This document shows positions 39,308 to 57,521 of a stretch of 64,000 nucleotides of DNA, in pieces (position 1 is the stretch's first letter; every line of letters starts with the position of its first letter). Origin of the DNA: Nannocystales bacterium (GTDB lineage Bacteria; Myxococcota_A; Polyangia; Nannocystales; Nannocystaceae); the NCBI GenBank assembly GCA_050633305.1, contig JBOEGF010000024.1, positions 64,001-128,000 of the forward strand. The letters run 5' to 3'. A program made the translations under genes and the position numbers. A model generated the notes under the pieces. That model made no database searches. It saw only the letters and a list, made by a program, of their open reading frames with translations, and was not told where the DNA came from.

Positions 39308-39398
39308 GGAAAATCGGAGGCCAGGGGCCGAGCGCGACTATACGCCCCTGCGCGGCGTTGTTGCCAGAAGTCGGCCGTCGGTTCTACGATGGCCGCGG

Positions 39399-44507: not shown

Positions 44508-45836
44508 TCACGGGGTTGGCTCGAACACGCTCGTCCCAGGACCCATGCGTTGCTGCAGACGGGAGACTCGGGGCTCGTCCACGTGCACGGGGCCTTCTGC
44601 CTCGCGTCGGCCCGTATCGACCCACTCGCGCACGATGCGGTACAGGCCGTGGTCGAACGGGATGCCCGGTGCGGCCGCGACGGGCTCGATGCGTTCCCGT
44701 TGCCCTTGTCGCTCCATTTCGAGCGCTCGATGGTGGCAAAACGGGTTGTTTCCAGGGCGGCCCATCAAGGGCTCGGATGTCGCGGTGCACCCGCCTCGGC
44801 ACGTGTCGGCGTAGTAACACTGGGCACAGTAGCCCCACAGTTCGGCCGTGCTTCGCTCGCGGATGTACGCCAGCTCGGCGGAGCGAGCCCACAGCTCGCG
44901 GAGGGAGTGTTCGCGGATGTTGCCTCCGACATTCTCGGGCCCTCCGAGGCTGGGGCAGCCCTTGATGTCGCCGTGCGACTCGATCCCGATCTGTGCGCGC
45001 CCCGCTGCGCACCCTTTGTAGTGACGCTTCTGCAGCGAGCGGAGTTCGGCTTCGAGGGGCCCGAAGTACCCGAGGTTGTTGCCTGGCCAGATCTTGATGC
45101 CGCGCTCTCGGGCCCGCGCGAGGAGCGGTCGCAACACCTCGAATACCTCCAGCATCATGTACGGCTGCAGCAGAATCTCGGGGTGGTCGGCCGCGTTGCC
45201 GAACGGCGATGTGATCTGTAGTTGCCATCCGAAGGCCCCCGCGTCGCCGATGCGCTCGAGGAGCGTCGGGAGGTCGTACAGCGTGCGTCGGTTGATCTGC
45301 GTGTTCACGCCCACCGGAATCCCGGCCGCGCGTAGACGCCCGATGGCCTCGAACGCCTTGTCGTGGCTGCCCGGGATGCCCCTCAATTCATCATGGGCCT
45401 CGGCCAACCCGTCGACCGAGATCGACACGGTGCGAATCCCGGCCTCACGAAGCGCCCCGACTCGCGCTTGCGTCAGGTTGAGGCCGCCGGTCGTCATCGT
45501 GACGGACATGCCACGCGCACGGATCTCGTTGACGATCAGGACGAAGTCGTTGCGCAGATAGGCTTCGCCACCGACCAGGGTGACCTCGCCGACGCCCATG
45601 TCCGCGAGCTGCCCCACGAGGTCCAGGCACTCGTCCGTCGTCAGCTCGTCCTTTCTCGCCTTTCCGGCTCGAGACCCGCAGTGGATGCAGCGCTGGTCGC
45701 AAGCCAACGTAATCTCCCAGACGGCGTAGCGCGGGGTCGGGACTTCGCCCGCAGGCGTGTCTCGCAGCCGCCGTTGGTCGGGCGTTGGCAGATCTTGAAG
45801 CACCCGTAGGCGCCGTCTGGCGTCCTCGAGGCGCAC
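44508..45836 (-). CDS. Radical SAM/SPASM maturase, PlpX/splicease-like (copy 1)
   Basis: GTG 1 nt after upstream stop; AVWEITLACDQRCIHCG (Cx3Cx2C), GGEAYLR, SPASM CAAG..GIES.GDIKGCPSL..CAQCYYADTCRGGC..GNNPFCHHRAL..RERI..PFDHG. Confidence 0.88.
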   Translation of the reverse strand: MRLEDARRRLRVLQDLPTPDQRRLRDTPAGEVPTPRYAVWEITLACDQRCIHCGSRAGKARKDELTTDECLDLVGQLADMGVGEVTLVGGEAYLRNDFVLIVNEIRARGMSVTMTTGGLNLTQARVGALREAGIRTVSISVDGLAEAHDELRGIPGSHDKAFEAIGRLRAAGIPVGVNTQINRRTLYDLPTLLERIGDAGAFGWQLQITSPFGNAADHPEILLQPYMMLEVFEVLRPLLARARERGIKIWPGNNLGYFGPLEAELRSLQKRHYKGCAAGRAQIGIESHGDIKGCPSLGGPENVGGNIREHSLRELWARSAELAYIRERSTAELWGYCAQCYYADTCRGGCTATSEPLMGRPGNNPFCHHRALEMERQGQRERIEPVAAAPGIPFDHGLYRIVREWVDTGRREAEGPVHVDEPRVSRLQQRMGPGTSVFEPTP

Positions 45837-45837
45837 G

Positions 45838-46665
45838 TCAGGCCGGGGTGCAGACGTCGGAATCCAGGGCCTTGTCGGCGACGGGCTCGCACGCCTCGTC
45901 CTTCGCACAACTGGCGACCTCGGGGTCGCAGGTTTCGAAGCACAGGGGGAGCGCGCCCTCGAACTGCACCACACATGTCCCTTCGAGGCATACCGGGGCG
46001 TCCTCCGAGTTGCTGCACATCTCGACGCAGACGCCCTCCGTGGTCTTGGCATCCACGTAGAAACACATGGCTCCGAGCACACAGGTATCGATACCTGTCG
46101 TGCCGCTTCCTTCGACGGTGCATGGCTCGCCCGGGCCGACTGGAGCTGGGTCGATCGGCGTACATCGGCTGGCGTTCCAGACCTCCCCGCCGTCGTTCGC
46201 CCAGGGCATGCATTTCTCTCCCTTGGCGCAGTCCTGCATGAACACGTCGCACTCGTAGGAGAGGTCTCCAACATCTGTCGGACACCCGCCGTAAAAGCCT
46301 CCGCAAGAGTCGAAGGTGTCGTCGTCGAGCGTGGTGCTGTCGCCGCCGGTCGTCGTGTCCCCGATGTCCGTTCCGCCCGACGTGGTCGCAGCTGGATCGG
46401 TCGTGGTCGTCCCCGGCGGGGGGAGTGTCGTCGCGACGCTGGGATCGCCGGAGCTCGAGCTGGTCGAGCTCGGTGAAGACTCATCGGTCGTATCTCCCGC
46501 GTCCGACACCGCCGGTCCACATGCGCTGAGAACGGCACCGACCGCGATGACCATGACGGCGACCGGAATCCGCTGGGGAGGCGTCGAGCGAAGCGGCGAC
46601 GAGCAAAACGGACAAGCCGGTTCCGCGTCGAGAACATGACGTGTGCAAGACGGGCAGGGCAGCAT
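45838..46665 (-). CDS. Candidate precursor lipoprotein 1: Zn-ribbon leader, lipobox, S/T-rich stalk, CGGFYGGC motif, Cys-rich C-terminal domain
   Basis: MLPCPSC..CPFC; VGAVLSAC; S/T/G/D linker; DSCGGFYGGCP; CDVFMQDCAKGEKCMPWANDGG Cys-rich module. Confidence 0.8.
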   Translation of the reverse strand: MLPCPSCTRHVLDAEPACPFCSSPLRSTPPQRIPVAVMVIAVGAVLSACGPAVSDAGDTTDESSPSSTSSSSGDPSVATTLPPPGTTTTDPAATTSGGTDIGDTTTGGDSTTLDDDTFDSCGGFYGGCPTDVGDLSYECDVFMQDCAKGEKCMPWANDGGEVWNASRCTPIDPAPVGPGEPCTVEGSGTTGIDTCVLGAMCFYVDAKTTEGVCVEMCSNSEDAPVCLEGTCVVQFEGALPLCFETCDPEVASCAKDEACEPVADKALDSDVCTPA

Positions 46666-46705
46666 TGGAGTACGATAGCTTTGTTGGAGTTCGTTTTGGT
46701 AGAAA

Positions 46706-47260
46706 TTATTCGATACCCGGGACCTCGACATCTGGGAGGACGACGGCCTCTCCCCCGACCACCACATCCGGCCCCAAAATGGCCACGACCAGCTGACCGC
46801 TGGCGCAAACCTCTCCCGTTTCGTCGGTGATCGTGGCTTCCCAGCGGCCCCGGTTCCTGTGGGCTTCCGCCGCTGGCGTGGCTTCGGCGCGAAGTCTTGC
46901 TCCCAGCCGGGTGGCCCGATGGAACCGGGTCGTGTTCTCCAGTCCTACGGCGTTGTGACCCCGCGCGAGCTCTGCGAACGCAGCTCCGACCGAGCACACC
47001 GACTCGAGCATCGCCGCATAGACGCCGCCATGCGTTAGTGCGTAGGGCTGCAGGTGATTCTCCGTGACCACGAGTGTCGCGACGACCCGCTCGTCCTCGA
47101 CCGCTTCGTAGTGGATTCCCAAGTGCAGATCGAGCCCAGTCCGATTGGCGTCAACCAGCGTGGCACGCTGATCGGAAGGGAGCGAAGAGAGGAGCTTGGC
47201 CAACGCGGCCGCCGAGGGAGGCCCGCCGCCGAGTCTACTCTGAACCGCGGGTCCTTCCAC
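46706..47260 (-). CDS. PaaI family thioesterase
   Basis: HLQPYALTHGGVYAAMLESVCSVGA..AVGLENTTRF hot-dog fold motif. Confidence 0.85.
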   Translation of the reverse strand: MEGPAVQSRLGGGPPSAAALAKLLSSLPSDQRATLVDANRTGLDLHLGIHYEAVEDERVVATLVVTENHLQPYALTHGGVYAAMLESVCSVGAAFAELARGHNAVGLENTTRFHRATRLGARLRAEATPAAEAHRNRGRWEATITDETGEVCASGQLVVAILGPDVVVGGEAVVLPDVEVPGIE

Positions 47261-47311
47261 TCGCGAGGCTTCGACGAGGCTCCCTACCCAGAAACGCGAT
47301 AGGGTTCGCGG

Positions 47312-47848
47312 ATGTTCTACTGGGTGGTGATCGCGACCTCGATCTGGATGGCGGTCGACGCGTCGAAGATCGGATACGACAAACGCGACATCAAAGGACT
47401 CGCCGCGATCGGCCCCGCAGGCTGGCTCTTCGCCGGGTTATTGCTGTGGATCGTCACGTTTCCGCTGTATCTCATCAAGCGCCCGGAGCTGAAGGCCGCC
47501 GCAGAGAGAAAACGGCAGATGCTCGCGTATGGGCACGGCGCGCCGGGACAGCTGATGGGTCAAGGGTACCCGCCAGCGCAAGGGTACCCGCCAGCGCAGG
47601 GGTACCCGCCGGCGCAGGGGTACCCACCAGCGCAGGGATACCCACCAGCGCAGGGATACCCACTAGCGCAGGGATACCCGCCGATGCCGCCGCAGCAGCC
47701 CTACGGACAGCCGAACGGGGGCCCGCCGTCGCAGCCTTCGCCGGACGTCGAGTTGGGGTTGCGGAAGCTTGAAGAGTTGCGGACCTCCGGGCTCCTCTCC
47801 GAAGCGGAGTTCCAGCAGCAACGGGCGCAGCTGCTGGCTCAGGTCTGA
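47312..47848 (+). CDS. Membrane protein with QGYPPA repeats and SHOCT-like C-terminus
   Basis: Two TMs (..LLWIVTFPLYLIKR); C-terminal LRKLEELRTSGLLSEAEFQQQRAQLL. Confidence 0.8.
   Translation: MFYWVVIATSIWMAVDASKIGYDKRDIKGLAAIGPAGWLFAGLLLWIVTFPLYLIKRPELKAAAERKRQMLAYGHGAPGQLMGQGYPPAQGYPPAQGYPPAQGYPPAQGYPPAQGYPLAQGYPPMPPQQPYGQPNGGPPSQPSPDVELGLRKLEELRTSGLLSEAEFQQQRAQLLAQV
47561..47686 (+). repeat. Seven 18-bp coding tandem repeats (QGYPPA)
   Basis: cagggRtacccRccRgcg-type units: QGYPPA x5, QGYPLA, QGYPPM. Confidence 0.9.
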
Positions 47849-48090
47849 GCAGGCGCAGGTCTGCGAGGGCGCTTCTCGGACGGCGAATACAGATCACTCC
47901 GATCGACCGCGCGAGGCGTCCAAGTGCGCCATACCTGTGCACACCGACGATCCGGGGCAGACCCCGCGGCTCGCGGGTGCCATCAGCTCGGCCGATTCGG
48001 ACGTTGTGGGGCGCGGCTTGGCGGCGCGAGCGAGGGAAGGGCGTGGTTTCTCGGAACGTTTTTGAGCCGCGGCAAGACTACCAGCGCAGC

Positions 48091-49266
48091 ATGCGTATTG
48101 CCCCTTCCCCCCGTCGTCTTCTTCTCTGCGGTTTGCCGCTCGTCGCCGCGTCCTTCACGGCGTGCGCTGCCTCCTCGGACGGTGCGCCCGACCGCGTGTC
48201 GTGGCGCTCGGCGTGCGGGCCTGCGTCGCGCCAACTGACCAACGGCGATGACGCTCCGCCGCCCACCATGCCGTGGTTCGATCTGGAGTGTGATCACGAA
48301 GCGGGAGAGGTTCTCGTCGGCGTCGTGAGTTTCGACTACGGCTGGGATTCGTTGGACACCGTCGCGGCGGTCTGCGAGGCCGAGGACGGCTCGCAGCGAC
48401 AGGTCGGCAACCTGGCCGATCAGCTCAATGTCGCGGGGTCCGGCGAGCAGGTCACGTGTCCCGCCGGTCAAACTGTCGTCGAGTTGGTCTATCGAGATGC
48501 CTACTTCCCAGGCATTCCGCTCGGGACCACGGATGCAGTGGGCATCGTGTGTAGCGGCGATGCGACTCCGATCCTACCGCCCGACTTGGCGTCCAACCCT
48601 CTTGCGGACCGCATCGTGGGCTGTGATGCCGGGCAGATCGCGGTGGGCGTGTCGTACGGGGATGGCGTGCGGCACCCTGTGAGCAACGCGCACTACAGCG
48701 ATCTGACCGATGCGGTCACGCTGCTGTGCGCCGACGACTGCGGCGAATGTGAACCCACGGTAGAGCTACAGCCATACCCTGACGATTTCGTGCTGGGCAG
48801 CGCCGAGCATATCGAGGTCGAACTCCTGTGCGACGACGACGAGACGATGACCGGGCTCATGTATCGCGACTACTGGTGGGACGGGATGGACAGCGCGGCC
48901 GTGCAGTGCTCCAACGCCGAAGGAGAGGTTCGCCTCGTCGCCAACCAAGCGGATCTCGTCAACTCGCTGGGCCCCGAAGAATGGGTGTCCTGCCCTGCGC
49001 CTGAAACGGTCATCGGCATCGCGTACAAGGACATCCCCTACTGGGCTGGCGTCCCGGTCGACAAGACCGATGGGGTCACCGTCGTCTGCAGCGGCGGCTC
49101 CATCGGCAAGGTCGAGGACCTCGCCAGCAACGACGAGCACCCGTTTCGCACCGTAGCGTGCCCAGCCGGGACCGAGCCGGCGGGGATTCAGTACGCGGAC
49201 ACCTGGGTCGGCTACAGCGACCTGACCGATGGGGTGACCGTAGCGTGCCGTGTGCCTTGCGACTGA
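48091..49266 (+). CDS. Secreted/lipoprotein with six Cys-bounded repeats (tandem beta-prism-like domains)
   Basis: Signal/lipobox FTAC; six units of C-x(4-6)-[EQ]-xx-VG..Y/F.D...D.V..C. Confidence 0.65.
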   Translation: MRIAPSPRRLLLCGLPLVAASFTACAASSDGAPDRVSWRSACGPASRQLTNGDDAPPPTMPWFDLECDHEAGEVLVGVVSFDYGWDSLDTVAAVCEAEDGSQRQVGNLADQLNVAGSGEQVTCPAGQTVVELVYRDAYFPGIPLGTTDAVGIVCSGDATPILPPDLASNPLADRIVGCDAGQIAVGVSYGDGVRHPVSNAHYSDLTDAVTLLCADDCGECEPTVELQPYPDDFVLGSAEHIEVELLCDDDETMTGLMYRDYWWDGMDSAAVQCSNAEGEVRLVANQADLVNSLGPEEWVSCPAPETVIGIAYKDIPYWAGVPVDKTDGVTVVCSGGSIGKVEDLASNDEHPFRTVACPAGTEPAGIQYADTWVGYSDLTDGVTVACRVPCD

Positions 49267-49443
49267 GCTGAGTGCACCGGGCGCGAGGGCGGAGCGCCAA
49301 GACCGAGATCGCGGCACACCTCCGCCGGATGCGACGCCGCAAACTCAAATGGGGTGCCTTCGTAGGGCTTGAATGAAGACACTGTGGACCTCGGGTCGCG
49401 AGCATCTCTCGAGCGGGCGTGGCGTTCGAGCTGTAAGCACCCC

Positions 49444-49968
49444 TCAGGCGCCTTCCTCACGCTTGCTTTGTGCCGCGAAGTTCCACGCACGGGGGAGCGC
49501 GTGTCCACAGAGGTCGCACTCGAACCATCCGTCCTTCACGAGGTTTCGCTCACCGCAGTTGGGGCACAGGCGGAACGTGTACGCTTGCGTGAGCGCCTCA
49601 GGGCAGGGGATCCCGAGCGCGACGAAGGCCTCGTGGGCGGCCTCCCAGCACCCGGGGTCGGGGCAATAGCCCGTGGACTGGTTCGAGACGCCGATGATCG
49701 CGAGGTCGGGTTGGCGTGCGAGCATCAGCTCTCCTGCTGCGAGCACGGGGCCGCCGCGGGCACAGGCCACATGCTCGGACCGTTGCGGCGCAATCCGAAG
49801 TGTCCCGTCCTCAACGACGACGAACGTCACCGTCAGCACCTCGCCCTCCCACTCGTCTTGTTCGCCGGCCCACGCGAGCAACACGTCCGCTCGGGTGACC
49901 GACACGCCCGAGTCGTCTCCTGCGACCGCCGCCTTGATCTTCGCCGGTCCAACATACTGATAGAGCAT
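49444..49968 (-). CDS. Hypothetical protein with C-terminal zinc ribbon
   Basis: YQYVGP, RSEHVACARG..VLAAGE, SNQSTGYCPD, CPNC..CDLC..LPRAWNF. Confidence 0.7.
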   Translation of the reverse strand: MLYQYVGPAKIKAAVAGDDSGVSVTRADVLLAWAGEQDEWEGEVLTVTFVVVEDGTLRIAPQRSEHVACARGGPVLAAGELMLARQPDLAIIGVSNQSTGYCPDPGCWEAAHEAFVALGIPCPEALTQAYTFRLCPNCGERNLVKDGWFECDLCGHALPRAWNFAAQSKREEGA

Positions 49969-50184
49969 GACCATCCTGTCCCGACAAGGGTGCCACGGGA
50001 GACCTCGGGCACGGGAGAATCCGTGAAAGGAAGTCGATCGCCTGGTTCGAGATCGCCGGGGTTGGAGCACGGTGGAGGCCAGCGGCTTTTCCCGCGACTG
50101 CCTAGCTAGGGCTCAATCGGCCGAGGTTTCGATGTTCGTGTCGCTTGCGGCGGACCGTCGGACGGCTCGCGCCCGCTTGACGGT

Positions 50185-50521
50185 CTAGGTGTTCCTCGCT
50201 CGACCAAATACGATGGGCGGCTTCTTGATGACGTGCTTCTTGCCGTCGGGCGTGCGAAGTGAGTTGAAGCCCGTCCTGTGCGCGGTCCTGTGGACGATGC
50301 CGGCGACGACGGCGTTGGCGAGGGGGTAGATGCAACGCTTGAGAAGCTTCTCGCCGCCGACGACGGTCTGGACACCGGGTCCTTCCTTGAAAAATTCGCC
50401 GCTCCGCCGTGAATCGAGTTCAGCTCGCGGGCGACGACGGAGTTGAACCCTTAAGAAAGTGGCTGACTTGCCCGAACCGGTCGAGGAACAGCATGTTGTG
50501 GTGCGTCGAGAGAAGCTCGAA
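50185..50521 (-). pseudogene. Frameshifted remnant of an HUH/Y1 (RAYT-like) transposase
   Basis: Across two frameshifts reads FELLSTHHNMLFLDRFGQVSHFLK / GFNSVVARELNSIHG / RSGEFFKEG..LKRCIYPLANAVVAGIV..TGFNSL, collinear with the intact gene at 52361. Confidence 0.65.
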
Positions 50522-50652
50522 TGGGCACGATCCGTTTGGCCGGACACTCCGCGAGCGGAGACAATGCCAACACAACGAACGTGACGAGGAAGCGGACAAG
50601 AAGGAAATTCAGCGCGGAGTTCAAGGTCAACGCAGTGAAGCTGGCGATGTGA
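50522..50652 (+). mobile_element. IS3-family left-end remnant with truncated OrfA
   Basis: TG-starting end tgggcacgatccgtttggccggacac; 50581..50652 encodes VTRKRTRRKFSAEFKVNAVKLAM*, the typical IS3 OrfA N-terminus. Confidence 0.6.
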
Positions 50653-51018
50653 AGCGGTACGAGGATCGCGACGATGGCCCGCAGAGGAGGGCTTCTTCGG
50701 TCGAGCCGAGGCGGGAGAGGTGCCGTACGCGTTGAGGTCGCGCCAGCTCCGAGGTGTCCTGGGTCCTCTCGAACTCGAACTCGAATCCGAGTTGGACGGC
50801 TGCGCGGAACACCTGTCGCAGTTTCGGAACACCGAGGTGAGGGGAAGCTGACCAGCGAAGGGTCGACCGGCAAGGTCACGACAGCGAGTCGGTGGGAGAG
50901 CGACAGGGGCGAGGAAGTGGGCCGGTGTGCCGCCGCGAAAGTGCAAGGCGCTCGTCTCCCGTGGTCCCGGAAGTCGACGCAGGGCGTCTCGTGCCCGTGC
51001 ACGCGCGCTCAGCAGGCG

Positions 51019-52095
51019 TTAGTACTCGGCTCGCAGTCGCAGGATCATGTCTGCCTCCGCGACGCTGAAGTACAGCCACCCGTCATCGACCGCCAGCAGT
51101 GAGAGTGCATCCTCGCTTTGCACAAGCGTCTGTGGTGGGCCGCCTTCGAGCGCGACCCGGCGGATGAAGGTGGGGTCGTCTGGTCCGATGCTGCCGGTCG
51201 AAAAGTACGCTCGCCCGCCCGCGATTGCGACCGCCTGCGGGTTCTGCCCGGCGTCCGCGAGGCGGCGGTGCGCTCGGGTGTTCGTGTCGACCGCGATGAC
51301 CTCACCCGAGGTCTCGAGTAGGGCGACGGCAGTGGTGTCTTCGAGTGCGAGGGCGACAGGACCGGCCGCATGTGCGACGATCGACTGAGTGCGCCCGCCG
51401 GCTTTCGGCAGGCGTCCGATGCGATTGCGGAAGAACGACGCGAAGTAGATGTGGGTCTCGGTGACGACGATGTCCCCGGGCCGGGGCTGCGTGCTGATTT
51501 GCTCGAGTGTGCCGCCGGCCTTCGGCACCCGAAAGATGCCTGGGTTCTGGAACGGGGTCAGGTAGACGAAGTGGTCATCGAGGGCGAGGCCGAGCACACC
51601 ATCGAGTTCTTCGACCGCCTCGACGTCGACCAGTCGGATCGGTGTGTCCGAGTCGTGCTCGATTCGAAGAACGCCCGAGAGCGAGGCCGCGTACAGCGCG
51701 CTGTCGTCGAGCCAGAGCCGCTCGGAAGAAGAGTCGTCGTCGAGCGTCGTCCGTTTTCCACTCCACCGGTCGACACGCAGGAGCACCCCCGATTCGATCG
51801 AGGCGTAGTAGTGATGCGGGGTGACCGCGAAGTGCCACGTGCTCGGCATGTCCGTCAGCACGACCTCGACCGCAGCCTCGGTTTCGATCGACGCCGGAGG
51901 AGCTGGGTTCTGTGGGGCTGCGGGTTCGGGTTGGACGGAACTTCCGAGATCGGGTGGAGGCGAGACCGGCGTGTGCACGATGCGGGCACGGGGAGACTCC
52001 TTGGTCTTCCCTCGCTCGAGCTCGAGCTCGCACGCGCCGACGACGAACGAGTAGGCGAGCAGGCCAGCGAGCCAGGATCGGCGATCCGCGTTCAC
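51019..52095 (-). CDS. Beta-propeller lipoprotein
   Basis: Lipobox VGAC; repeated blades LALDDHFVY..RVPKAGG, IVVTETHIYF..RLPKAGG, LAVDDGWLYF. Confidence 0.8.
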   Translation of the reverse strand: MNADRRSWLAGLLAYSFVVGACELELERGKTKESPRARIVHTPVSPPPDLGSSVQPEPAAPQNPAPPASIETEAAVEVVLTDMPSTWHFAVTPHHYYASIESGVLLRVDRWSGKRTTLDDDSSSERLWLDDSALYAASLSGVLRIEHDSDTPIRLVDVEAVEELDGVLGLALDDHFVYLTPFQNPGIFRVPKAGGTLEQISTQPRPGDIVVTETHIYFASFFRNRIGRLPKAGGRTQSIVAHAAGPVALALEDTTAVALLETSGEVIAVDTNTRAHRRLADAGQNPQAVAIAGGRAYFSTGSIGPDDPTFIRRVALEGGPPQTLVQSEDALSLLAVDDGWLYFSVAEADMILRLRAEY

Positions 52096-52141
52096 GATGC
52101 GCAGAGTACCCGCACGGGGGCGGCCTCATTCCGGGGAGTGA

Positions 52142-52327
52142 GGGGAGAACCGGAAGTGAGGTGGGAGAACCGGACGTTAGGGGGGAGAACCGGACGTAGG
52201 GTCTCCGTTTTCGAACGGTGGACGGGTGAGAACCGGACGTAGGACGGGTGAGAACCGGACGTAGGGTCTCGGCTTTCGAACAGCGACGGAGGGGAGAACC
52301 GGACGTAGGATCTCCGTTTTCGAACGG
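52142..52327 (+). repeat. Array of REP-like hairpin repeats upstream of the HUH transposase
   Basis: GAGAACCGGA at 52145, 52165, 52185, 52228, 52250, 52294; three long units GAGAACCGGACGTAGGRTCTCSGYTTTCGAAC. Confidence 0.85.
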
Positions 52328-52360
52328 CGAAAAGCTAGGAGTTCTGGCTCCGGCCCACGG

Positions 52361-53440
52361 GTGGGCCACGGGTTGGCGTTCGCTACGGCGTTCGATTTTT
52401 TTCGCAACACCTCCGAACTGCGGTCGACCCGTTCTGCGGTGCCCTCTGCCCTCAAGGCGGCCAGCGCAGCAAGACGCAAGGCCAACCGTGCTCGCGGCGA
52501 CGCTCGCGACTACGAGCGCGTTCGGGCTCGGGCCGTCAGGCCCAATACCCGCGTCATGATCACCCGGCGGTGTCATGACCGCCGAATGTACCTCAGTGCC
52601 TACGGCGATCCCAAGAGGGGCCATACGCCGGAACAGACGAAGAACTTCTATGGCTTCACGGTTGCCCGTGCCGTCAAGAAGTACGGCGTCTCGTTCCATG
52701 GTGCGATTCAGATGGGCAACCATCACCACCAGAACATCACCGACCGGCTCGGCAATCGGCCCAACTACAAGAACTCGGTGCACGGAAATCTCGCTCGAGG
52801 CATCAATGCCCGCTTCGGACGCTTCGACGGCTTGTGGAGCAGTGGTGGCTCTTGCGACACCGTTACTCCCTCCGACGACGACACCCTCAAAGACCTTGCC
52901 TACAACGACTGCAATGCGACGACGTCCGGCCTGGTCAAGTGGGGGCACCTGTGGCCTGGCTTCACGACCTACGGATGGCGCTTCGGCGAGACCCGCGTGT
53001 TCGTGCGTCCGGACTGGTACTACGACCCGAAAGAGCCCGACAATCCCGAGACCATCGAGCTCACACGGACGCGGCCAGACATCTTTCCCGAGCTGACCGA
53101 CGATGAGCTGTCCGACAAGTTGCTCGCGCTGTGCCGCGAGATTGAGCTCGAGGCGCAGGCTCAGATGAAGGCAGAGAACCGCCGGTTCGTGGGTCTTCGG
53201 AAGCTTGGAAAGACACAGTGGTGGCGCCGTGCGAAGTCACCGGAGAAACGGTTCGGCACCGTCCCGACCGTTGCGTCCTCACAAGCCGAAAGTCGCAAGC
53301 GGGAGCTCCGGAGGAACGAGAATTGGCGGCGCGAGTACGCGGCTCAGCGTGACAACTATCGCTGCGGTGCGCCGGCGAAGTTCCCCGCTGGTTCGTACTT
53401 TTTACCGAAGATCTACAAGGCCGACGTCGAGCCACCGTAG
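52361..53440 (+). CDS. HUH/Y1 tyrosine transposase (RAYT-like)
   Basis: VMITRRCHDRR, QMGNHHH (HUH), LARGINARFGRFDGLW, LAYNDCNATTSGLV..WPG (catalytic Tyr helix), C-terminal FPAGSY. Confidence 0.8.
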   Translation: MGHGLAFATAFDFFRNTSELRSTRSAVPSALKAASAARRKANRARGDARDYERVRARAVRPNTRVMITRRCHDRRMYLSAYGDPKRGHTPEQTKNFYGFTVARAVKKYGVSFHGAIQMGNHHHQNITDRLGNRPNYKNSVHGNLARGINARFGRFDGLWSSGGSCDTVTPSDDDTLKDLAYNDCNATTSGLVKWGHLWPGFTTYGWRFGETRVFVRPDWYYDPKEPDNPETIELTRTRPDIFPELTDDELSDKLLALCREIELEAQAQMKAENRRFVGLRKLGKTQWWRRAKSPEKRFGTVPTVASSQAESRKRELRRNENWRREYAAQRDNYRCGAPAKFPAGSYFLPKIYKADVEPP

Positions 53441-53629
53441 ACGTCTGCACATACGGCCGCGGCGGCGTTGCCTTGGGCTTCGTCGCCGTGATGGATTGGT
53501 TCGGATTCGGTTCGGAGCGCGTCGTTGCCCCGTATCCGTCCGGAGCGGTCAAATTCGGGGCTGTCGAGAGCCCGCGAGCCGCGGACCTCTGAGTTCCCGC
53601 GTCCGAACCGAATGCGAACGGGATTCCTT

Positions 53630-53726
53630 ATGCCGGAGACCTCCCGTCCGGACTCATCCCCCGTCTTCCGGACTCATCTCATGCCGGAGACCTCCCGTCC
53701 GGACTCATCCCCGTCCGGACTCATCT
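53630..53726 (-). repeat. Second repeat array downstream of the transposase, inverted relative to the upstream array
   Basis: TCCGGACTCATC at 53647, 53667, 53698, 53714; 32-nt duplication at 53630 and 53681; reverse complement shares CCGGACG..GGTCTCCG with the upstream unit. Confidence 0.8.
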
Positions 53727-55693
53727 TCCGGGGCGTCGTGCCACTGCGCCTGCTTGGCCGGCGCATAGATCCCGAACGACCAGATCTGGCGGGTCTTGGA
53801 CACGTCGACCAAGATCCACGTCGGGTCGGGTCCAGCAGGAACCTCGATCGGCATGACGCTGGGGAAGTTCTCCGTGCCCCGGTACTGGAAGGGAACGACC
53901 GCTCCTCGGAAGACGCGCTCGTCACCCGACCACACCGTCAGTCCCACGTAGTAGCGCCAGATCAACGGAACGGTTGTCTCCGTGCTCGCTGACAACCGCA
54001 CCGCGAGAAACCCGGGCTGTCCGTGAAGCGTTCCGTCGAGGTCAAAGGCTCCGTCCTGCGCTTCGAGACGCGTCCAGCTCGGGTCGGTCGTACTCGTGGG
54101 TGGTGGCGGCGGAGTCTCCCTGTCCCAGGCCCGGATGTACGCGACCGGAACCGGTGTGTGGGGATCGACGCGACGGATCTCTTGCAACACGACCCCGTCT
54201 CGCTCGATGCGCCGAACCACCTCTCCGGGCAAGGTCGACTCCCAGCCCTGGCGGACCTCCGACAGGAAGAACTCGAAGTGGTCGGCGTTGAGCTGGAGGT
54301 CGTGCTTCCAACCCAGGTACGATCCGAGCGCCGAACCGTTGCCGACGATGTGGACGGCGGCACCGGGGTGTTCGTCGCGGAGCCAGTGAAATCCTTCTTG
54401 GTACGTCTCCGAGTAGTGCGCGACGTCGAATCGCCCTCGTGCCCCCTGCGTTCCGCCGACGAGCGGATTGAAGTACAGCGAAGCATAGGGGTGGAGCCGA
54501 GCGCTGGCGGTTGTGCTCTCGGCGACGCCCAGCACCACCGCCACGGCCGCGATGCACCTCGCCCGGGTCCCCAGACGAGCCACGCGCACCCAGCCGACGG
54601 CCGCCAGCACACAGATGGGGGGAACCATGAACAACAGATGGCGCGAGGTGTCGTACAGCGTGGTCTGTTTGAGCACGGGAACCAGTGCCGGGCCGACCGT
54701 CCAAGCGACCAGCAGCACCCAGCCGAACGCGACACGGGCCCTCGGTCGGTTGCGGACCGTTGTCCAAAACAGTCCGCCAAGCGTGGCGACGAATCCGAAG
54801 ACGACGGGAACGGGGAGGGTGATGCCCAACCACACGACAACGTAGCTGGAGGGCGCATCCCAAAACGGGTGGAGTTCGCCCATGAACAGGCTTCGTGAGC
54901 CGTGCACGTGGCGCGTCAGATCCATCGATGCCGTGACGAGATGCCATGGCGGTCGTACCCAGAGCACGGGCCAGGTCGCGAACGTGATCGCATACGCGAC
55001 CACCAGTACGGCGCCAATGCGAAGGGCCACGGCCCGCGCCTGAGATTCGCAGGGGCGGCCGACGACGACCGCGCTGGCCGCAACGAAGTAGAACACAACA
55101 CCGAACGGGCGAATCGTCGCGCACAGCCCCGCCAAGATGCCGGCGGTGATCAGGCGTCGCCGGGTCGGTTCGTGGGCGAGACGGATGCACGCCCACGCGG
55201 ACCAGACCGCGGCTGCGGAGAACGGGATGTCCTTGGGGTTCACACACGCCGAGCCCCAAACCCGGGGGGCGGTCGCAAGGAAGACCATCGCAAGCAAGGC
55301 GACAGCTTCACCACCGAGCGCTTTGGCAAGGCGATGTGTCCCCAGCAGCCCGAGCCCCGCGGCGAACAGGTTGAGCACATGGCGGGCGAAGAACTCGTCC
55401 GTCCCCCCGAACCAGTGATGGTCCGCCAGCCAGGCCAGACGCCCCATGAGGTCGTAGAGCACGCCGTAGTACTCCCGCTCAGGCATCAGCGTGTACGCCT
55501 CGATCTCGCCAGTCGCGAGTGCGTCCATCCACCCGCGCGACCACAGCATCCGCCACGGCTCGTCCGTCGTCGGCCCGTAGTCCTGGGCGACCGTCAGCCC
55601 GATGCCCCAGAACGCCACGAGAACGACCCACGGCCCCACCTTCCAGAGCCGGTGAAGACGTGAACTCGGGTCGATCGCCTCAGACGAGCTCAT
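53705..55693 (-). CDS. GT-C fold glycosyltransferase (PMT/ArnT-like, GT39/GT83)
   Basis: Start MSSSEA overlaps the rSAM 3' end; DYGPTTDEP after first TM, EYYG, NPKDIPF, multiple TMs, YDTSRHLLF, HPY..YFN. Confidence 0.8.
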   Translation of the reverse strand: MSSSEAIDPSSRLHRLWKVGPWVVLVAFWGIGLTVAQDYGPTTDEPWRMLWSRGWMDALATGEIEAYTLMPEREYYGVLYDLMGRLAWLADHHWFGGTDEFFARHVLNLFAAGLGLLGTHRLAKALGGEAVALLAMVFLATAPRVWGSACVNPKDIPFSAAAVWSAWACIRLAHEPTRRRLITAGILAGLCATIRPFGVVFYFVAASAVVVGRPCESQARAVALRIGAVLVVAYAITFATWPVLWVRPPWHLVTASMDLTRHVHGSRSLFMGELHPFWDAPSSYVVVWLGITLPVPVVFGFVATLGGLFWTTVRNRPRARVAFGWVLLVAWTVGPALVPVLKQTTLYDTSRHLLFMVPPICVLAAVGWVRVARLGTRARCIAAVAVVLGVAESTTASARLHPYASLYFNPLVGGTQGARGRFDVAHYSETYQEGFHWLRDEHPGAAVHIVGNGSALGSYLGWKHDLQLNADHFEFFLSEVRQGWESTLPGEVVRRIERDGVVLQEIRRVDPHTPVPVAYIRAWDRETPPPPPTSTTDPSWTRLEAQDGAFDLDGTLHGQPGFLAVRLSASTETTVPLIWRYYVGLTVWSGDERVFRGAVVPFQYRGTENFPSVMPIEVPAGPDPTWILVDVSKTRQIWSFGIYAPAKQAQWHDAPEDESGRG

Positions 55694-57011
55694 CGATCGT
55701 TCGTCCGGGCCCGGTCCACTCGATCGTTCGGTCCACCCGGGGTTCTTCGATCGCCACGGGACCCTCGGATTCGCGCCGTGCTTCGTCGACCCACTCTCGA
55801 ACGATCCTGAACAGCGCGAACGCAAAGCCGTCGTCCGCCGCGGGCTTCACAAGCTCAATGCGCTCCCGCATGCCCTCCTTCTCCATCTGGAGCGCTCGGT
55901 AGTGGCAGAAGGGATTGTTGCCCGGCCGCCCCATCAGTGGCTCAGAGACTGCCGTACATCCTCCCTTGCAGACGTCCGCGTAGTAGCACTGCGCGCAATA
56001 ACCCCACAGATCCGTTCGGGTCCGGTTGCGCAGCGAATCGATCTGCGGCTTTGTCCACAGGGCCGCGAGACCCTCCTCCCGCCACGAACCACCGACGTTC
56101 GTCGGGCCACCCAATGAAGGGCAGTTCTTGATCGCGCCGTTGCTCTCGATGCCGATCGTCGACTTGCCAGCCTCGCACCCACCGAAGTGTCCCGTTCGCA
56201 TGCGCTGCTTCGCGCGCAGTTTTCGCTCGACGGGGCCGAAGTAGCCCAGAGAGTTCGCCGGCCAGATCCGAACCCCGAGTTCCTCTGCGCGGTCGCAGAC
56301 GGCGTCGAGGGCTTCAAAGACTTCGAGCAGCATGTACGGCTCCATGACCAGCTCGAGGTTGTCGGCCGCGTTTCCGTGCGGCACGGTGATTTGCAGCTGC
56401 CACGAGTGGACTCCTTCGGCCGCGATCAGCTCGAGCAAGTCCAGCAGTTCGAACCGGGTGTACGCATTGATCTGGGTGTTGACCGCCACGCCACATCCCG
56501 CACCTCGCAAATACCGGAGAGCCCGGAACGCATGCTCCCAGCTGTCCTTGGTGTTCCGGACGAGGTCGTGGCTCTCTTGCATGCCGTCGATCGACAAACT
56601 CACACTCTCGATGCCCGCCTCCACGAGGGCTTCGGCGCGATCCTTCGTCAGGCCATATCCACCCGTCGTCATCGTCGCGGACATGCCGAGTTCCCGAATC
56701 CTGCGTACGATCAGGATGAAGTCGTTGCGCAGGTACGCCTCGCCTCCGATGAGGACCACCTCGCCGACCCCCATCTCGGCCAGCTCTTCGGTCAGCTGTA
56801 GTGCCTCGGCGGTCGTCAGCTCGTCCGGACGCGCGTCCGCAGCCCGAGGGCCGCAGTGTAGACAGCGCTGGTCACATGCGAGCGTCAGCTCCCAGACCGC
56901 CAGACGCGGAACTGGAACCTGGCCCGGCAACGTGGCCTCGAAGCCTCGGCCGCGCGCGACCGGTAGCGAGTCGACGATCGGAAGGTGATGCTTGGCCTCC
57001 CGGAGTCTCAT
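55680..57011 (-). CDS. Radical SAM/SPASM maturase, PlpX/splicease-like (copy 2)
   Basis: GGAGG RBS and ATGA overlap with precursor stop; AVWELTLACDQRCLHCG, GGEAYLRND, CEAG..GIESNGAIKNCPSL..CAQCYYADVCKGGC..GNNPFCHYRAL. Confidence 0.9.
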   Translation of the reverse strand: MRLREAKHHLPIVDSLPVARGRGFEATLPGQVPVPRLAVWELTLACDQRCLHCGPRAADARPDELTTAEALQLTEELAEMGVGEVVLIGGEAYLRNDFILIVRRIRELGMSATMTTGGYGLTKDRAEALVEAGIESVSLSIDGMQESHDLVRNTKDSWEHAFRALRYLRGAGCGVAVNTQINAYTRFELLDLLELIAAEGVHSWQLQITVPHGNAADNLELVMEPYMLLEVFEALDAVCDRAEELGVRIWPANSLGYFGPVERKLRAKQRMRTGHFGGCEAGKSTIGIESNGAIKNCPSLGGPTNVGGSWREEGLAALWTKPQIDSLRNRTRTDLWGYCAQCYYADVCKGGCTAVSEPLMGRPGNNPFCHYRALQMEKEGMRERIELVKPAADDGFAFALFRIVREWVDEARRESEGPVAIEEPRVDRTIEWTGPGRTIDELV

Positions 57012-57451
57012 GCCTCCTGGTCCGAGTCCGTGGGTTCTTCCCAAACCGACGATCCGGTCGAAGACGAGGAGGTGCCGGGGCCGGCGTAGTACGAGCCGCC
57101 GAAGTCCGTCGTGCTGCTGCTGGAGTCGCCGCCGGTGGTCGAGCTGGTCGAGCTGGTCGAAGCCGGCCCCGCGTAGTACGAGCCGCCAAAGTCCGTTGTG
57201 GAGCTTTCGTCGGCGGTCGTGCTGCTGCTCGTCGAGGCGTCGGTCGTCGACGAACTCGATGCTGACTGAGTGGTGGTCCCCGGTCCGGTCGATGCGCCCG
57301 TGTCCCCATCGCTGTCGCAGCCGACGAGACTGAGCCCCAAGGAGAGGCCGAGCACCGCGGCGGCTCTCGCAGTTCGCGAGGGTGCCTTGCAATGAGGGCA
57401 CACGGTCTCCGAGGCGACCACGAACTGATCACATGTCATGCAAAGTCTCAT
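57008..57451 (-). CDS. Candidate precursor lipoprotein 2: Zn-ribbon leader, lipobox, S/T-rich stalk, two TTDFGGSYYAGP cores
   Basis: MRLCMTC..CPHC; LGLSLVGC; SSTTDFGGSYYAGP twice, 29 aa apart. Confidence 0.85.
   Translation of the reverse strand: MRLCMTCDQFVVASETVCPHCKAPSRTARAAAVLGLSLGLSLVGCDSDGDTGASTGPGTTTQSASSSSTTDASTSSSTTADESSTTDFGGSYYAGPASTSSTSSTTGGDSSSSTTDFGGSYYAGPGTSSSSTGSSVWEEPTDSDQEA
57077..57199 (-). repeat. Two coding copies of TTDFGGSYYAGP (about 57077-57112 and 57164-57199)
   Basis: Identical 12-aa peptide with synonymous nucleotide differences (gaag/aaag, gtc/gtt, ccg/ccc). Confidence 0.9.
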
Positions 57452-57521
57452 GCGTACTCAAGTCGCAACCGACCCCGATTCGATCGGTTGCATGTTGAAA
57501 AAAAACGCTACTCTGGGGAAG

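Follow-up and report, generated by a model that had tools for sequence, protein, structure and literature searches.

Two putative enzyme–substrate cassettes and their neighbours

The window, the whole 64,000-nucleotide stretch of a Nannocystales bacterium contig (JBOEGF010000024.1) that was analysed, carries on its minus strand two cassettes in which a gene for a predicted zinc-ribbon lipoprotein precursor (the substrate) directly precedes a gene for a radical SAM/SPASM enzyme. Both lie where an earlier note had placed them and have the junctions it described: in cassette 1 a 1-nt gap separates the substrate 1 TGA stop (45840–45838) from the rSAM1 GTG at 45836, and in cassette 2 the substrate 2 and rSAM2 genes overlap in an ATGA (57011–57008). 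The two enzymes are 58–59% identical, and all four sequence blocks quoted as common to them are present in each. The description as two paralogous cassettes is accurate but understated, as the genome contains five rSAM enzyme paralogs and about 19 zinc-ribbon substrates. Four of the five paralogs are adjoined by a zinc-ribbon substrate; none was found adjacent to the fifth, which is on C14. The features are as follows.

44508–45836, minus strand: rSAM1, radical SAM/SPASM enzyme, 442 aa, GTG start; Pfam Radical_SAM and SPASM
45838–46665, minus strand: substrate 1, putative zinc-ribbon lipoprotein precursor, 275 aa, with a Ser/Thr-rich stalk, one F-Y-G-G-C-P site and a Cys-rich domain
46603–46656, minus strand: zinc ribbon of substrate 1, CPSC-x10-CPFC, residues 4–21
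46519–46530, minus strand: lipobox LSAC of substrate 1, with lipidation and cleavage predicted at Cys49
46285–46302, minus strand: candidate modification site G-G-F-Y-G-G of substrate 1, Tyr125
53705–55693, minus strand: 662-aa membrane protein, third gene of the cassette 2 operon; marginal match to PMT_2 (glycosyltransferase)
55680–57011, minus strand: rSAM2, radical SAM/SPASM enzyme, 443 aa, ATG start
57008–57451, minus strand: substrate 2, putative zinc-ribbon lipoprotein precursor, 147 aa, with a Ser/Thr stalk and two D-F-G-G-S-Y-Y-A-G-P sites
57389–57442, minus strand: zinc ribbon of substrate 2, CMTC-x10-CPHC, residues 4–21; predicted docking handle
57317–57328, minus strand: lipobox LVGC of substrate 2, Cys45; Cys invariant in alignment A2
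57170–57187, minus strand: first Tyr site of substrate 2, G-G-S-Y-Y-A, Tyr92/Tyr93
57083–57100, minus strand: second Tyr site of substrate 2, Tyr121/Tyr122

The proposed substrate design (CxxC-x10-CxxC, signal, lipobox Cys, stalk and Tyr motif) can be recognized in both sequences. Substrate 2 has two copies of DFGGSYYAGP and a mature region that is 51% Ser plus Thr; in substrate 1 a domain with 18 Cys lies downstream of GGFYGG. Searches of Pfam and NCBIfam gave no family match for substrate 1; its four ribbon Cys align with four Cys that are invariant across a 17-row alignment of substrate 2 with related substrates, and the ribbon of substrate 2 has a weak hit (E 0.0014) to the TIGR03913 profile, in its C-terminal part. 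Phe124, Pro129 and Asp131 of substrate 1 are invariant in 7 orthologs, and orthologs of substrate 1 adjoin the closest rSAM relatives (L006, L007, L008, L011, L025 and L026). The ribbon spacer is 10 residues long in 99 of 105 substrates. Among the best 80 related loci a zinc-ribbon substrate adjoins the enzyme in 69, often with two to five in tandem, and homologs thus retain the adjacent Tyr-motif lipoproteins; no such substrate was found in the full flanks of L027, L028, L034, L043, L044 and L046.

A lipobox pattern with the expected Cys end is seen in 99/105 substrates, and 99/105 have a Lys or Arg ahead of the hydrophobic run. The lipobox Cys is positioned later than in standard signals (median 61, range 31–79), and with so late a Cys signal cleavage could fail and leave an uncleaved membrane anchor. 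The substrates might accordingly be spliced but unlipidated, single-pass proteins with a cytoplasmic ribbon and an external modified tail; the distant Cys, the atypical lipoboxes of some relatives (E-A-A-C in L007, M-T-D-C in L078) and the lack of any significant hit to lipoprotein family models are consistent with this. However, the hydrophobic run ends in Cys in every substrate, the lipobox core that fits 99/105 is something a plain anchor would have no reason to conserve, and the Cys is invariant throughout alignment A2, and we consider an unlipidated anchor distinctly unlikely.

Cassette 2 is a three-gene operon, in which the ATG of the membrane-protein gene (55693) gives a 14-nt overlap with the end of rSAM2. 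The 662-aa product matches Pfam PMT_2 only marginally (27.3 bits, cut-off 26.1) and no NCBIfam model, and a homolog is near just one of the 80 related loci (L021). It may glycosylate the Ser/Thr stalk of substrate 2, but it is not a conserved component of the system. An ECF sigma gene (57438–58169) and a Ser/Thr kinase gene are divergent from cassette 2. No PqqD-like protein, protease or exporter was found in the neighbouring genes scanned, and the genome's single PqqD match lies on a different contig, in agreement with the earlier observation that PlpY/RRE, protease and exporter genes are missing nearby. The absence of PlpY is expected because binary splicease systems also lack a Y protein (PMC11414181).

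Enzyme relationships and Tyr target sites

TIGR04103 (the PlpX type) and TIGR03913 are the only strong family matches of both enzymes, the next being at about 157 bits. The matches are full-length (E about 1e-130 and 1e-114), with rSAM1 scoring 435.6 bits for TIGR03913 and 435.2 bits for TIGR04103, and rSAM2 scoring 372.8 and 381 bits respectively, all below the curated cut-offs of 591.75 for TIGR03913 and 725 for TIGR04103. The CxxxCxxC motif and seven SPASM Cys of rSAM1 are invariant across 53 relatives, and rSAM1 and rSAM2 are intact radical SAM/SPASM proteins. In an IQ-TREE phylogeny the Nannocystaceae clade containing the window enzymes (15 rows, SH-aLRT 100) groups with five TIGR04103 members that exceed the cut-off (808–820 bits; SH-aLRT 97), and the window enzymes branch nearer to TIGR04103 than to TIGR03913; the nearest relative of rSAM2 is from Nannocystis radixulma (L021, 67%). 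The proposed membership of both enzymes in the splicease clade is therefore borne out by this grouping and by the sub-cut-off HMM matches, and, judged by sequence, they are related to enzymes that excise tyramine from the peptide backbone.

The likely target is seen in the substrate tails, which are of low complexity and have the Tyr site as their sole conserved feature. The mature regions of 86 substrates from related loci contain 229 Tyr, of which 189 (83%) precede a Gly, where the background frequency of Gly is 0.20, and 180 (79%) have Pro at +3; the preceding residue is variable. In the sister Polyangia-type clade, 176 of 182 Tyr are followed by Gly. The site in the window clade is T-Y-[A/G]-G-P-D, and the residue following its 46 Tyr is Ala in 18, Gly in 12 and Ser in 5; T-Y-x-G-P-D motifs that are otherwise the same carry either Ala or Gly at the one position. 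The window's own clade thus follows a relaxed form of the canonical X-Y-G rule. The Tyr-Gly motif attributed to the cassettes is present in substrate 1 (GGFYGG), at a Cys-flanked site with Pro at +4 instead of +3, but not in substrate 2, which has Tyr-Ala (only Y-Y-A-G-P).

An alternative explanation is that the same enzyme and substrate interact and the Tyr site is modified without tyramine excision, by cross-linking to a nearby residue, hydroxylation or epimerization. SPASM enzymes perform many peptide reactions, as reflected by the many named families that match at lower scores, both enzymes are below the curated cut-offs of both families, and the clade favours Tyr-Ala over Tyr-Gly (18 versus 12 of 46). 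Nonetheless, the clade joins bona fide TIGR04103 members (SH-aLRT 97), the modelled site has the barrel residues of TIGR04103, the sister clade is almost uniformly Tyr-Gly (176/182) with a motif close to the PlpA splice tag, and the Ala/Gly swap affects a single position of an otherwise constant T-Y-x-G-P-D. We regard a different chemistry as unlikely, while giving it more weight than an unlipidated anchor.

Predicted docking of the zinc ribbon

Models of rSAM2 with substrate 2 gave ipSAE values of 0.82, 0.83 and 0.83, and all three controls gave 0.00; the ipSAE mark is reached by 116/157 solved complexes and 2/215 mismatched pairs, in a calibration set that differs from this job, which used its own alignments and ligands. 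At least 55% of contacts agree between runs, and the partner pLDDT is 49–50, so the substrate fold is uncertain. The modelled interface consists of the zinc ribbon and substrate residues 85–100. Ribbon residues 1, 3, 7–10 and 19 contact rSAM2 residues 258–263, 269–275, 343–344 and 371, and residues 85–100 lie in the barrel, touching 84–88, 111–115, 135–138, 174–180 and 202–207. The zinc ribbon is thus predicted to sit on the SPASM region, with the first Tyr site in the active-site barrel. Barrel residues touching the modelled Tyr site (E84, N178, Q180, W204, Q205 and Q207) are common to the TIGR04103 and TIGR03913-like groups; remoter rSAM/SPASM proteins keep W204, Q205 and Q207 and have changed E84, N178 and Q180.

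A CxxC-x10-CP[HF]C ribbon is also present at the C-terminus of all nine TIGR03913-like enzymes examined. These enzyme tails are recovered (E 1e-10 to 8e-3) by an HMM made from 105 substrate ribbons, which also picks up an N-terminal ribbon on P0011, and at two TIGR03913-like loci a small upstream protein has one P-Y-G site and no ribbon. The ribbon-contact positions Y343 and H275 are mostly Tyr and His (275 is sometimes Tyr) in every ribbon-linked group, and are Glu/Phe in 5/5 TIGR04103 members; few independent evolutionary events lie behind both the co-varying residues and the enzyme–ribbon fusions.

Many anti-sigma factors have a zinc-binding N-terminus ahead of a membrane segment. The substrates resemble this general layout, and with a sigma factor and kinase divergent from cassette 2 they could be regulators such as anti-sigma factors, their adjacency to rSAM genes having no enzymatic meaning. 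This appears very improbable: tblastn with the ECF sigma factor found none near any of the 80 loci, a Pfam search found no anti-sigma domain, the low-complexity tails conserve only the Tyr site, and the linkage to the enzyme is both close and conserved, with a complex model that passes its controls.

Proposed pathway and comparison with known systems

The reading we consider likely is that each cassette is a two-component splicease-type system acting on lipoprotein precursors, with Sec and Lsp performing export and leader removal. The substrate would be synthesized in the cytoplasm as a pre-prolipoprotein, and because its N-terminal zinc ribbon precedes the signal peptide, the ribbon would stay cytoplasmic. 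There it would dock onto the SPASM region of the partner enzyme, as we infer from the model, the enzyme–ribbon fusions and the co-varying residues. The disordered stalk would deliver the Tyr site (x-Y-[G/A]-G-x-P in the window clade) to the active-site barrel for putative tyramine loss; since the Tyr sites are in the exported part, the enzyme would have to act ahead of translocation. Sec would then export the modified chain, the lipobox Cys would receive its lipid, and signal peptidase II would cleave off the zinc ribbon along with the signal peptide, so that the lipoprotein pathway would replace a dedicated RiPP leader protease and exporter. The result would be stalks that are anchored by lipid and bear electrophilic keto-amide groups, formed from up to about 19 proteins by five enzymes in this genome, and the substrate 1 stalk would terminate in a Cys-rich domain. 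The pairing of a radical SAM enzyme with a ribbon-bearing, lipoprotein-like protein with conserved Tyr sites suggests that the cell probably makes lipid-anchored envelope proteins bearing reactive keto-amide groups. A plausible role for these is as tethered protease inhibitors, directed at serine or cysteine proteases, that vary in the side chain preceding the Tyr.

The type I spliceotide systems PlpX/PlpY/PlpA and PcpXYA of Pleurocapsa (TIGR04103/IPR026482; PMC11414181, PMC11002830) belong to the same radical SAM/SPASM superfamily (E about 1e-130), several sites per substrate are possible both there and here, and both motifs are Tyr-centred with a variable residue before and Pro after. The PlpA splice tag, P-L-Y-G-L-P-I, resembles P-L-Y-G-L-P-P of Polyangia-type substrates (PMC10533398). 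Unlike the Plp and Pcp systems, the window cassettes have no Y protein, RRE, or Nif11 or NHLP leader, their substrates having a zinc ribbon and lipoprotein signal instead of a leader; in the window clade Tyr is often followed by Ala in place of Gly, the enzymes score below the TIGR04103 cut-off, and modification would yield anchored proteins instead of released peptides.

RhaX/RhaA and RcsX/RasX of Rheinheimera (PMC11414181, PMC11626197) likewise consist of an enzyme and substrate only. In these type II binary systems, whose known products inhibit serine and cysteine proteases (PMC11414181, PMC11626197), an N-terminal substrate element binds the enzyme, as predicted here; that element is a leader helix, whereas in the window it is a zinc ribbon predicted to lie on the SPASM region, and Sec and signal peptidase II would take care of export and leader removal. 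TIGR04133 (SPASM with an associated putative lipoprotein) also pairs an enzyme with a lipoprotein-like neighbour, but is distant from the window enzymes (157.5 and 139.1 bits, cut-off 425), and no match was found between the window substrates and the TIGR04133-type lipoprotein family.

TIGR03913, the 'GDL motif peptide-associated radical SAM/SPASM maturase', is an equally strong match (435.6 and 372.8 bits, both sub-cut-off), and TIGR03913-like enzymes share with the window both the CxxC-x10-CP[HF]C ribbon and the Tyr and His/Tyr at the two contact positions. Their ribbon is on the enzyme C-terminus, however, whereas in the window it is on the substrate, and at two loci the candidate substrate is small and soluble, with one P-Y-G site and neither ribbon nor signal. 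In the RhaX-leader fusion (Richter et al. 2024, PMC11414181) the recognition element is also on the enzyme, although that fusion is engineered and uses a helix, whereas the natural fusions use a zinc ribbon. The zinc ribbon therefore occurs in nature in both arrangements, on the substrate and on the enzyme.

Organization and conservation of the two cassettes

Both gene pairs are located where the earlier note had placed them, and their coordinates and gene junctions were reproduced, such that the observation of two cassettes is confirmed. In cassette 1 a single base separates the TGA stop codon of substrate 1 from the rSAM1 GTG, and in cassette 2 an ATGA is shared by the end of substrate 2 and the start of rSAM2. 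The four sequence blocks quoted as common to the two enzymes are present in each, and rSAM1 and rSAM2 share 58–59% identity. Although both cassettes are real, they are not the full complement, as the host genome (11.0 Mb in 90 contigs, 63–70% G+C, with the window at G000:C24:64001-128000) has five enzyme paralogs and about 19 substrates.

Genes of the two cassettes and genes divergent from cassette 2 (window coordinates)
46665-45838, (-) strand: substrate 1, 275 aa
45836-44508, (-) strand: rSAM1, 442 aa, GTG start
57451-57008, (-) strand: substrate 2, 147 aa
57011-55680, (-) strand: rSAM2, 443 aa
53705-55693, (-) strand: third gene of cassette 2, membrane protein, 662 aa, marginal Pfam PMT_2 (protein O-mannosyltransferase-like)
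57438-58169, (+) strand: ECF sigma factor gene, divergent from cassette 2
58084-60633, (+) strand: Ser/Thr kinase with TPR repeats, after the ECF sigma factor gene and divergent from cassette 2

A scan of 185,579 species genomes identified 592 relatives, the best 80 of which were kept as loci. The top relatives are in Nannocystis, Enhygromyxa and other Myxococcota, and 76 of the best 80 loci carry Myxococcota-type labels; of the other four, two are in Pyrinomonadaceae MAGs and two have no label beyond Proteobacteria. With a strict pattern (i.e. zinc ribbon plus lipobox), 63 of the 80 loci yielded 87 ORFs, a single one plainly spurious, and homology together with a relaxed pattern added L006, L007, L011, L014, L051 and L078. 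In this survey of homolog neighbourhoods, which the earlier note had proposed, an adjacent zinc-ribbon substrate is therefore kept at 69 of the best 80 loci. Substrate genes immediately precede or follow the enzyme gene, mostly on the same strand, and often 2–5 are in tandem. The 11 substrate-less loci include L069 and L077, which are TIGR03913-like, and L030, L041 and L048, where the downstream flank is shorter than 700 nt; at L027, L028, L034, L043, L044 and L046 no substrate was found despite full flanks. In a sample of the phylum, rSAM1 has matches at E up to 1e-100 in 99 of 401 genomes, with matches in 86 of 340 good-quality genomes and in 72 of 255 genera.

Within the host genome, one or two substrate genes are beside four of the five enzyme paralogs, and a whole-genome pattern scan gave 21 matches, 19 of which we count as credible. 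The fifth paralog (C14:165399-166595) is without a neighbouring substrate and groups with P0016 from the representative protein library in a different clade. A tandem array of five zinc-ribbon lipoprotein genes is located about 10 kb from it, at G000:C14:153522-155950 (+) and thus not in the window, four of them with a P-D-Y-G-V-P-T-T-G type site at the end.

Other genes beside the cassettes were considered as parts of the system. The 662-aa membrane protein gene starts at 55693, 14 nt ahead of the rSAM2 stop, and is translationally coupled to it; its product matches PMT_2 at 27.3 bits (cut-off 26.1), and an NCBIfam scan gave no family. A possible role of the protein is glycosylation of the Ser/Thr stalk in substrate 2. 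A homolog is near only one of the 80 loci, however, and we therefore do not regard the gene as a core part; that single instance is the orthologous Nannocystis radixulma locus, L021. The thioesterase, DEAD helicase and SHOCT genes beside cassette 1 have homologs near none of the 80 loci, and the ECF sigma factor has a tblastn match near none. The longest sigma factor ORF would share 14 nt with the beginning of substrate 2, and the true start of the sigma factor gene is thus probably further downstream. Homologs of the Ser/Thr kinase are near 10 of the 80 loci, which we take as background because such kinases are common in Myxococcota. We also considered the substrates as zinc-binding anti-sigma factors, but Pfam found no anti-sigma domain in them at E up to 0.01 and the adjacent sigma factor is matched at 0 of 80 loci, and this reading was set aside.

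Two further features of the window are of note in their own right. A 208-aa ORF at 49444-50070 (-) has a below-threshold match to the Cas12f/TnpB-like zinc-ribbon TNB domain (E 5e-4, 20.6 bits, cut-off 26.3), and may be a mobile-element remnant. At 39159-42704 (+), an FHA-GGDEF diguanylate cyclase gene is followed directly by a gene for a 795-aa TPR/SLT lytic transglycosylase.

Relationship of the enzymes to splicease families

Pfam finds both Radical_SAM and SPASM domains in rSAM1 and rSAM2. The CxxxCxxC motif (C46, C50, C53) and seven further Cys are invariant across the five paralogs and 53 relatives, such that the radical SAM motif and the complete seven-Cys SPASM domain required of TIGR04103-type enzymes are present. 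TIGR03913 (GDL motif peptide-associated rSAM/SPASM maturase) and TIGR04103 (nif11-class peptide radical SAM maturase 3, PlpX type) score 435.6 and 435.2 bits with rSAM1 (next best family 157.5) and 372.8 and 381.1 bits with rSAM2 (next best family 145.1). The match to the PlpX family claimed by the earlier note thus holds in that these two families are far ahead of all others, but both enzymes score under the curated cut-offs of 725 bits for TIGR04103 and 591.75 bits for TIGR03913, and are therefore curated members of neither. TIGR04133, a radical SAM/SPASM family with an associated lipoprotein, is not reached either (157.5 and 139.1 bits, cut-off 425 bits). The TIGR03913 matches of the window enzymes stop at profile position 396 of 477, and there are no Cys in the C-terminal tails of rSAM1 and rSAM2, which are thus without a TIGR03913-type ribbon tail.

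A protein search over 1.84 billion representatives returned 667 proteins at E up to 1e-30, and 94 near-full-length proteins chosen among the best 150 of these were scanned against NCBIfam; TIGR04103 and TIGR03913 are likewise the two top families for 93 of the 94, and only P0007 (TIGR03913, 771 bits) is over a cut-off. True TIGR04103 members were found by searching with P0015, the representative nearest that family, and five cyanobacterial positive controls score 808–820 bits with TIGR04103 and about 400–425 bits with TIGR03913. The distance between the two families is therefore similar to that of the window enzymes to each of them.

To place the enzymes we used curated TIGR04103 members as stand-ins for experimentally proven spliceases in a quick IQ-TREE search (LG+G4, 58 selected rows, five distant representatives as outgroup). 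In it, rSAM1, rSAM2 and the paralog on contig C23 fall in a 15-row Nannocystaceae-type clade (SH-aLRT 100), and the paralog on contig C6 falls in a 13-row Polyangia-type clade (support 92). These two clades and the TIGR04103 clade form a 45-row group with SH-aLRT 97, and the TIGR03913-like rows fall outside it; FastTree with 89 rows recovers the same two myxobacterial clades. The phylogeny thus groups the enzymes with curated TIGR04103 members, and the initial reading, in which putative spliceases act on lipoproteins, is supported by computation as far as computation reaches.

Substrate architecture, target sites and the zinc ribbon

Both window substrates begin with CxxC-x10-CxxC, after which come positively charged residues, an uncharged segment and a lipobox (LSAC in substrate 1 and LVGC in substrate 2). 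Bacterial lipoprotein signals (PROSITE PS51257) have a charged n-region, an uncharged h-region and a lipobox Cys subject to a positional limit. Both substrates fit this pattern as had been proposed; of the 105 family members, 99 have the Cys where the lipobox pattern predicts it and 99 have Lys or Arg ahead of the uncharged h-region. The Cys is at median position 61, beyond the limit of the positional rule, since the zinc ribbon comes ahead of the signal. None of the 105 substrates has Lys after the lipobox Cys. In Myxococcus xanthus, Lys at +2 is reported to mark inner-membrane lipoproteins and Ala at +7 matrix lipoproteins (PMC3222651), and since Lys is absent, this rule would predict that the window substrates leave the inner membrane; coming from another family of the phylum, it permits only a weak inference by analogy.

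The mature part of substrate 2 has 102 residues, 51% of them Ser or Thr and none Cys, and its four Tyr are all inside two copies of D-F-G-G-S-Y-Y-A-G-P. In substrate 1, an S/T-rich stalk leads to a C-G-G-F-Y-G-G-C-P site and then to a domain with 18 Cys. This Cys-rich domain recurs at L006, L007, L008, L011, L025 and L026, beside the closest rSAM1 relatives, and in the divergently oriented gene beside the C23 paralog; an Atlas search places it in unnamed Myxococcota clusters only, and the automatic name of one such cluster, ‘ribulose phosphate epimerase family protein’, is unsupported. Relative to its orthologs (335–364 aa), substrate 1 (275 aa) ends about 80 residues short (window 45838-46100 (-)) and is without their last Cys-rich sub-domain, by natural deletion or truncation.

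No Pfam or NCBIfam family matched substrate 1 or 2. In a wider set, Pfam gave zero families for four proteins at E up to 1, and NCBIfam gave only faint signal-peptide and zinc-finger matches for ten at E up to 1; neither database detected a Nif11 or NHLP leader. For three Nannocystis punicea substrates, the recorded annotation goes no further than ‘hypothetical protein’ or ‘zinc-ribbon domain-containing protein’; these come from five exact look-ups, the other two of which gave no match. One substrate relative, at L020:8551-9228 (+), combines an N-terminal ribbon and lipobox with a C-terminal G-C-G-C, a hydrophobic stretch and an Arg-rich tail, which we take to resemble a myxobacterial C-terminal sorting signal.

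We counted 229 Tyr in the mature parts of 86 locus substrates. Gly follows 189 of these and Ala 18 (background Gly frequency 0.20), and Pro is at +3 in 180 (background 0.11), with the preceding residue being variable (Leu 53, Ala 33, Val 28, Met 20, Thr 17, Arg 17, and others). In the 19 host substrates, Gly follows 31 of 41 Tyr. The Tyr motif depends on the enzyme clade. Polyangia-type substrates have the consensus x-Y-G-[A/G]-P-P (182 Tyr; +1 Gly 176, +3 Pro 157, +4 Pro 123), and those of the Nannocystaceae-type clade, to which the window belongs, have T-Y-[A/G]-G-P-D (46 Tyr; +1 Ala 18, Gly 12 and Ser 5; +2 Gly 22; +3 Pro 23; +4 Asp 19). The C6 paralog, an enzyme of the Polyangia-type clade, is paired with K-Y-G-A-P-P substrates, and clade and motif are therefore coupled within one genome. 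An X-Tyr-Gly site is present as F-Y-G in substrate 1, but substrate 2 has only Y-Y-A, twice.

The ribbon is also found on enzymes. All nine TIGR03913-like enzymes examined have a C-terminal CxxC-x10-CP[HF]C ribbon, and an HMM built from 105 substrate ribbons and run against 269 rSAM proteins finds nine enzyme C-terminal tails (E 1.4e-10 to 8e-3). The same HMM detects (E 3e-7) an N-terminal zinc ribbon at residues 15-38 of the splicease-like enzyme P0011 (546 aa), ahead of its radical SAM domain (85-481), and in NCBIfam the substrate 2 ribbon aligns to TIGR03913 profile positions 429-457 (E 0.0014). P0050, in which an internal ribbon follows half an enzyme, was set aside as a probable chimeric gene call. 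Conversely, the small protein upstream of the enzyme at L069 and L077 (88 or 78 aa) has one V-P-P-Y-G site and neither ribbon nor signal, an observation from two closely related loci only. These TIGR03913-like trios in Pyrinomonadaceae MAGs (L069:3657-7124 and L077:3677-7068) each consist of the small Lys-rich V-P-P-Y-G protein, the C-terminal-ribbon enzyme and a gene of about 560 aa, a putative carbamoyltransferase.

We then modelled the complex of rSAM2 (53-row alignment) and substrate 2 (17 rows) with SAM and three 4Fe-4S clusters. Predictions scored 0.82, 0.83 and 0.83, and three controls, two with an unrelated protein for the substrate and one with the enzyme replaced, all scored 0.00. 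Of 157 solved complexes 116 attain the same mark, as do 2 of 215 mismatched pairs, a calibration that is only approximate because custom alignments and ligands were used. The runs share at least 55% of contacts, although the fold of substrate 2 itself is uncertain given a partner pLDDT of 49–50. As no splicease structure had been solved according to PMC11414181, this result is unlikely to reflect memory of a solved complex.

Two segments make up the confidently predicted interface. In one, substrate 2 residues 1, 3, 7-10 and 19 in the ribbon would contact rSAM2 258-263, 269-275, 343-344 and 371, and in the other, residues 85-100 (the first site, T-T-D-F-G-G-S-Y-Y-A-G-P-A-S-T-S) would contact rSAM2 84-88, 111-115, 135-138, 174-180 and 202-207, which in the model we take to be barrel strand ends adjoining the G-G-E motif. 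Position 343, a predicted ribbon contact, is Tyr throughout the ribbon-linked groups (25/25, 25/25, 5/5 and 8/8), and position 275, another, is His in 24/25, 24/25 and 4/5, and His (5/8) or Tyr (3/8) in the TIGR03913-like group. Positions 343/275 are Glu/Phe in TIGR04103 (5/5) and near relatives (3/3), although these groups are related and so represent few independent events of co-variation. Barrel residues E84, N178, Q180, W204, Q205 and Q207 are common to all four groups; in distant rSAM/SPASM proteins other residues replace E84, I88, T115, N178 and Q180, and W204, Q205 and Q207 are retained. Three independent observations, the fused ribbons, the ribbon-less substrates and the co-varying contact residues, fit the docking model.

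A proposed pathway and its relation to known spliceases

Tyramine splicing has been described in small peptides, which are presumably released, and in engineered proteins. Here the same chemistry apparently acts on lipoproteins of the cell envelope, in roughly one in four of the genomes sampled in the phylum. We tentatively propose a joint reading, to which we give rather less than even weight, in which a ribbon-recruited splicease and the ordinary lipoprotein pathway yield anchored keto-amide stalks as a protease-inhibitor shield, with Tyr-Ala also accepted. A portable zinc ribbon, substrate-borne here and enzyme-borne in TIGR03913-like relatives, would recruit the splicease prior to export, and signal peptidase II would later discard it; in such a RiPP-like pathway, both export and removal of the leader would fall to the lipoprotein pathway. 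The scanned neighbours of either cassette include no PlpY/RRE, PqqD-like, protease or exporter gene, as the earlier note had observed, and contig C18 carries the only PqqD match of the whole genome. The absent protease and exporter fit Sec and signal peptidase II doing both jobs.

The products would be lipid-anchored disordered stalks with keto-amide warheads and many side chains, from about 19 proteins and five enzymes, and could serve as an envelope-tethered protease-inhibitor shield in a protease-secreting predator. Because characterised spliceotides are reported to inhibit serine and cysteine proteases via the keto-amide (PMC11626197; PMC9811515), a tethered-inhibitor role is a natural guess, by analogy, for the window products. 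If correct, these proposals represent a new mode of substrate recognition, by a zinc ribbon found on the substrate and fused to the enzyme, with no need for a dedicated protease or exporter where Sec and signal peptidase II cover both jobs, and they point to native membrane-tethered keto-amide proteins, possibly protease inhibitors. For engineering, the ribbon could be a small docking tag for splicing chosen proteins, and Tyr-Ala sites could broaden the range of usable motifs.

Among the papers searched, none connects spliceases to lipoproteins or zinc ribbons. According to papers citing it, the survey of Scott et al. 2022 (Chem 8:2659) looked for YG-rich neighbours of PlpX-like enzymes and detected such neighbours across 189 genera, the systems numbering 939 predicted and 27 characterised (PMC10849128; PMC10533398); given this breadth it may already list these myxobacterial enzymes. 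The present analysis places the enzymes relative to curated family members and adds the clade-specific Tyr-Ala motif, a complex model that passes its controls, the enzyme-fused ribbon, two co-varying contact residues and the genome count of five enzymes and about 19 substrates.

In lacking a Y protein, the window cassettes are the same as the binary spliceases reported in PMC11414181. Known spliceases are described as acting at X-Tyr-Gly (PMC11414181; PMC10533398), and the PlpA-derived splice tag G-P-I-R-P-L-Y-G-L-P-I given in PMC10533398 is close to the Polyangia-type P-L-Y-G-L-P-P. The main departure of the window clade from this rule is the frequent Ala after Tyr, including at both substrate 2 sites, and under the proposed reading its enzymes would also accept Tyr-Ala sites, widening the known splice motif.
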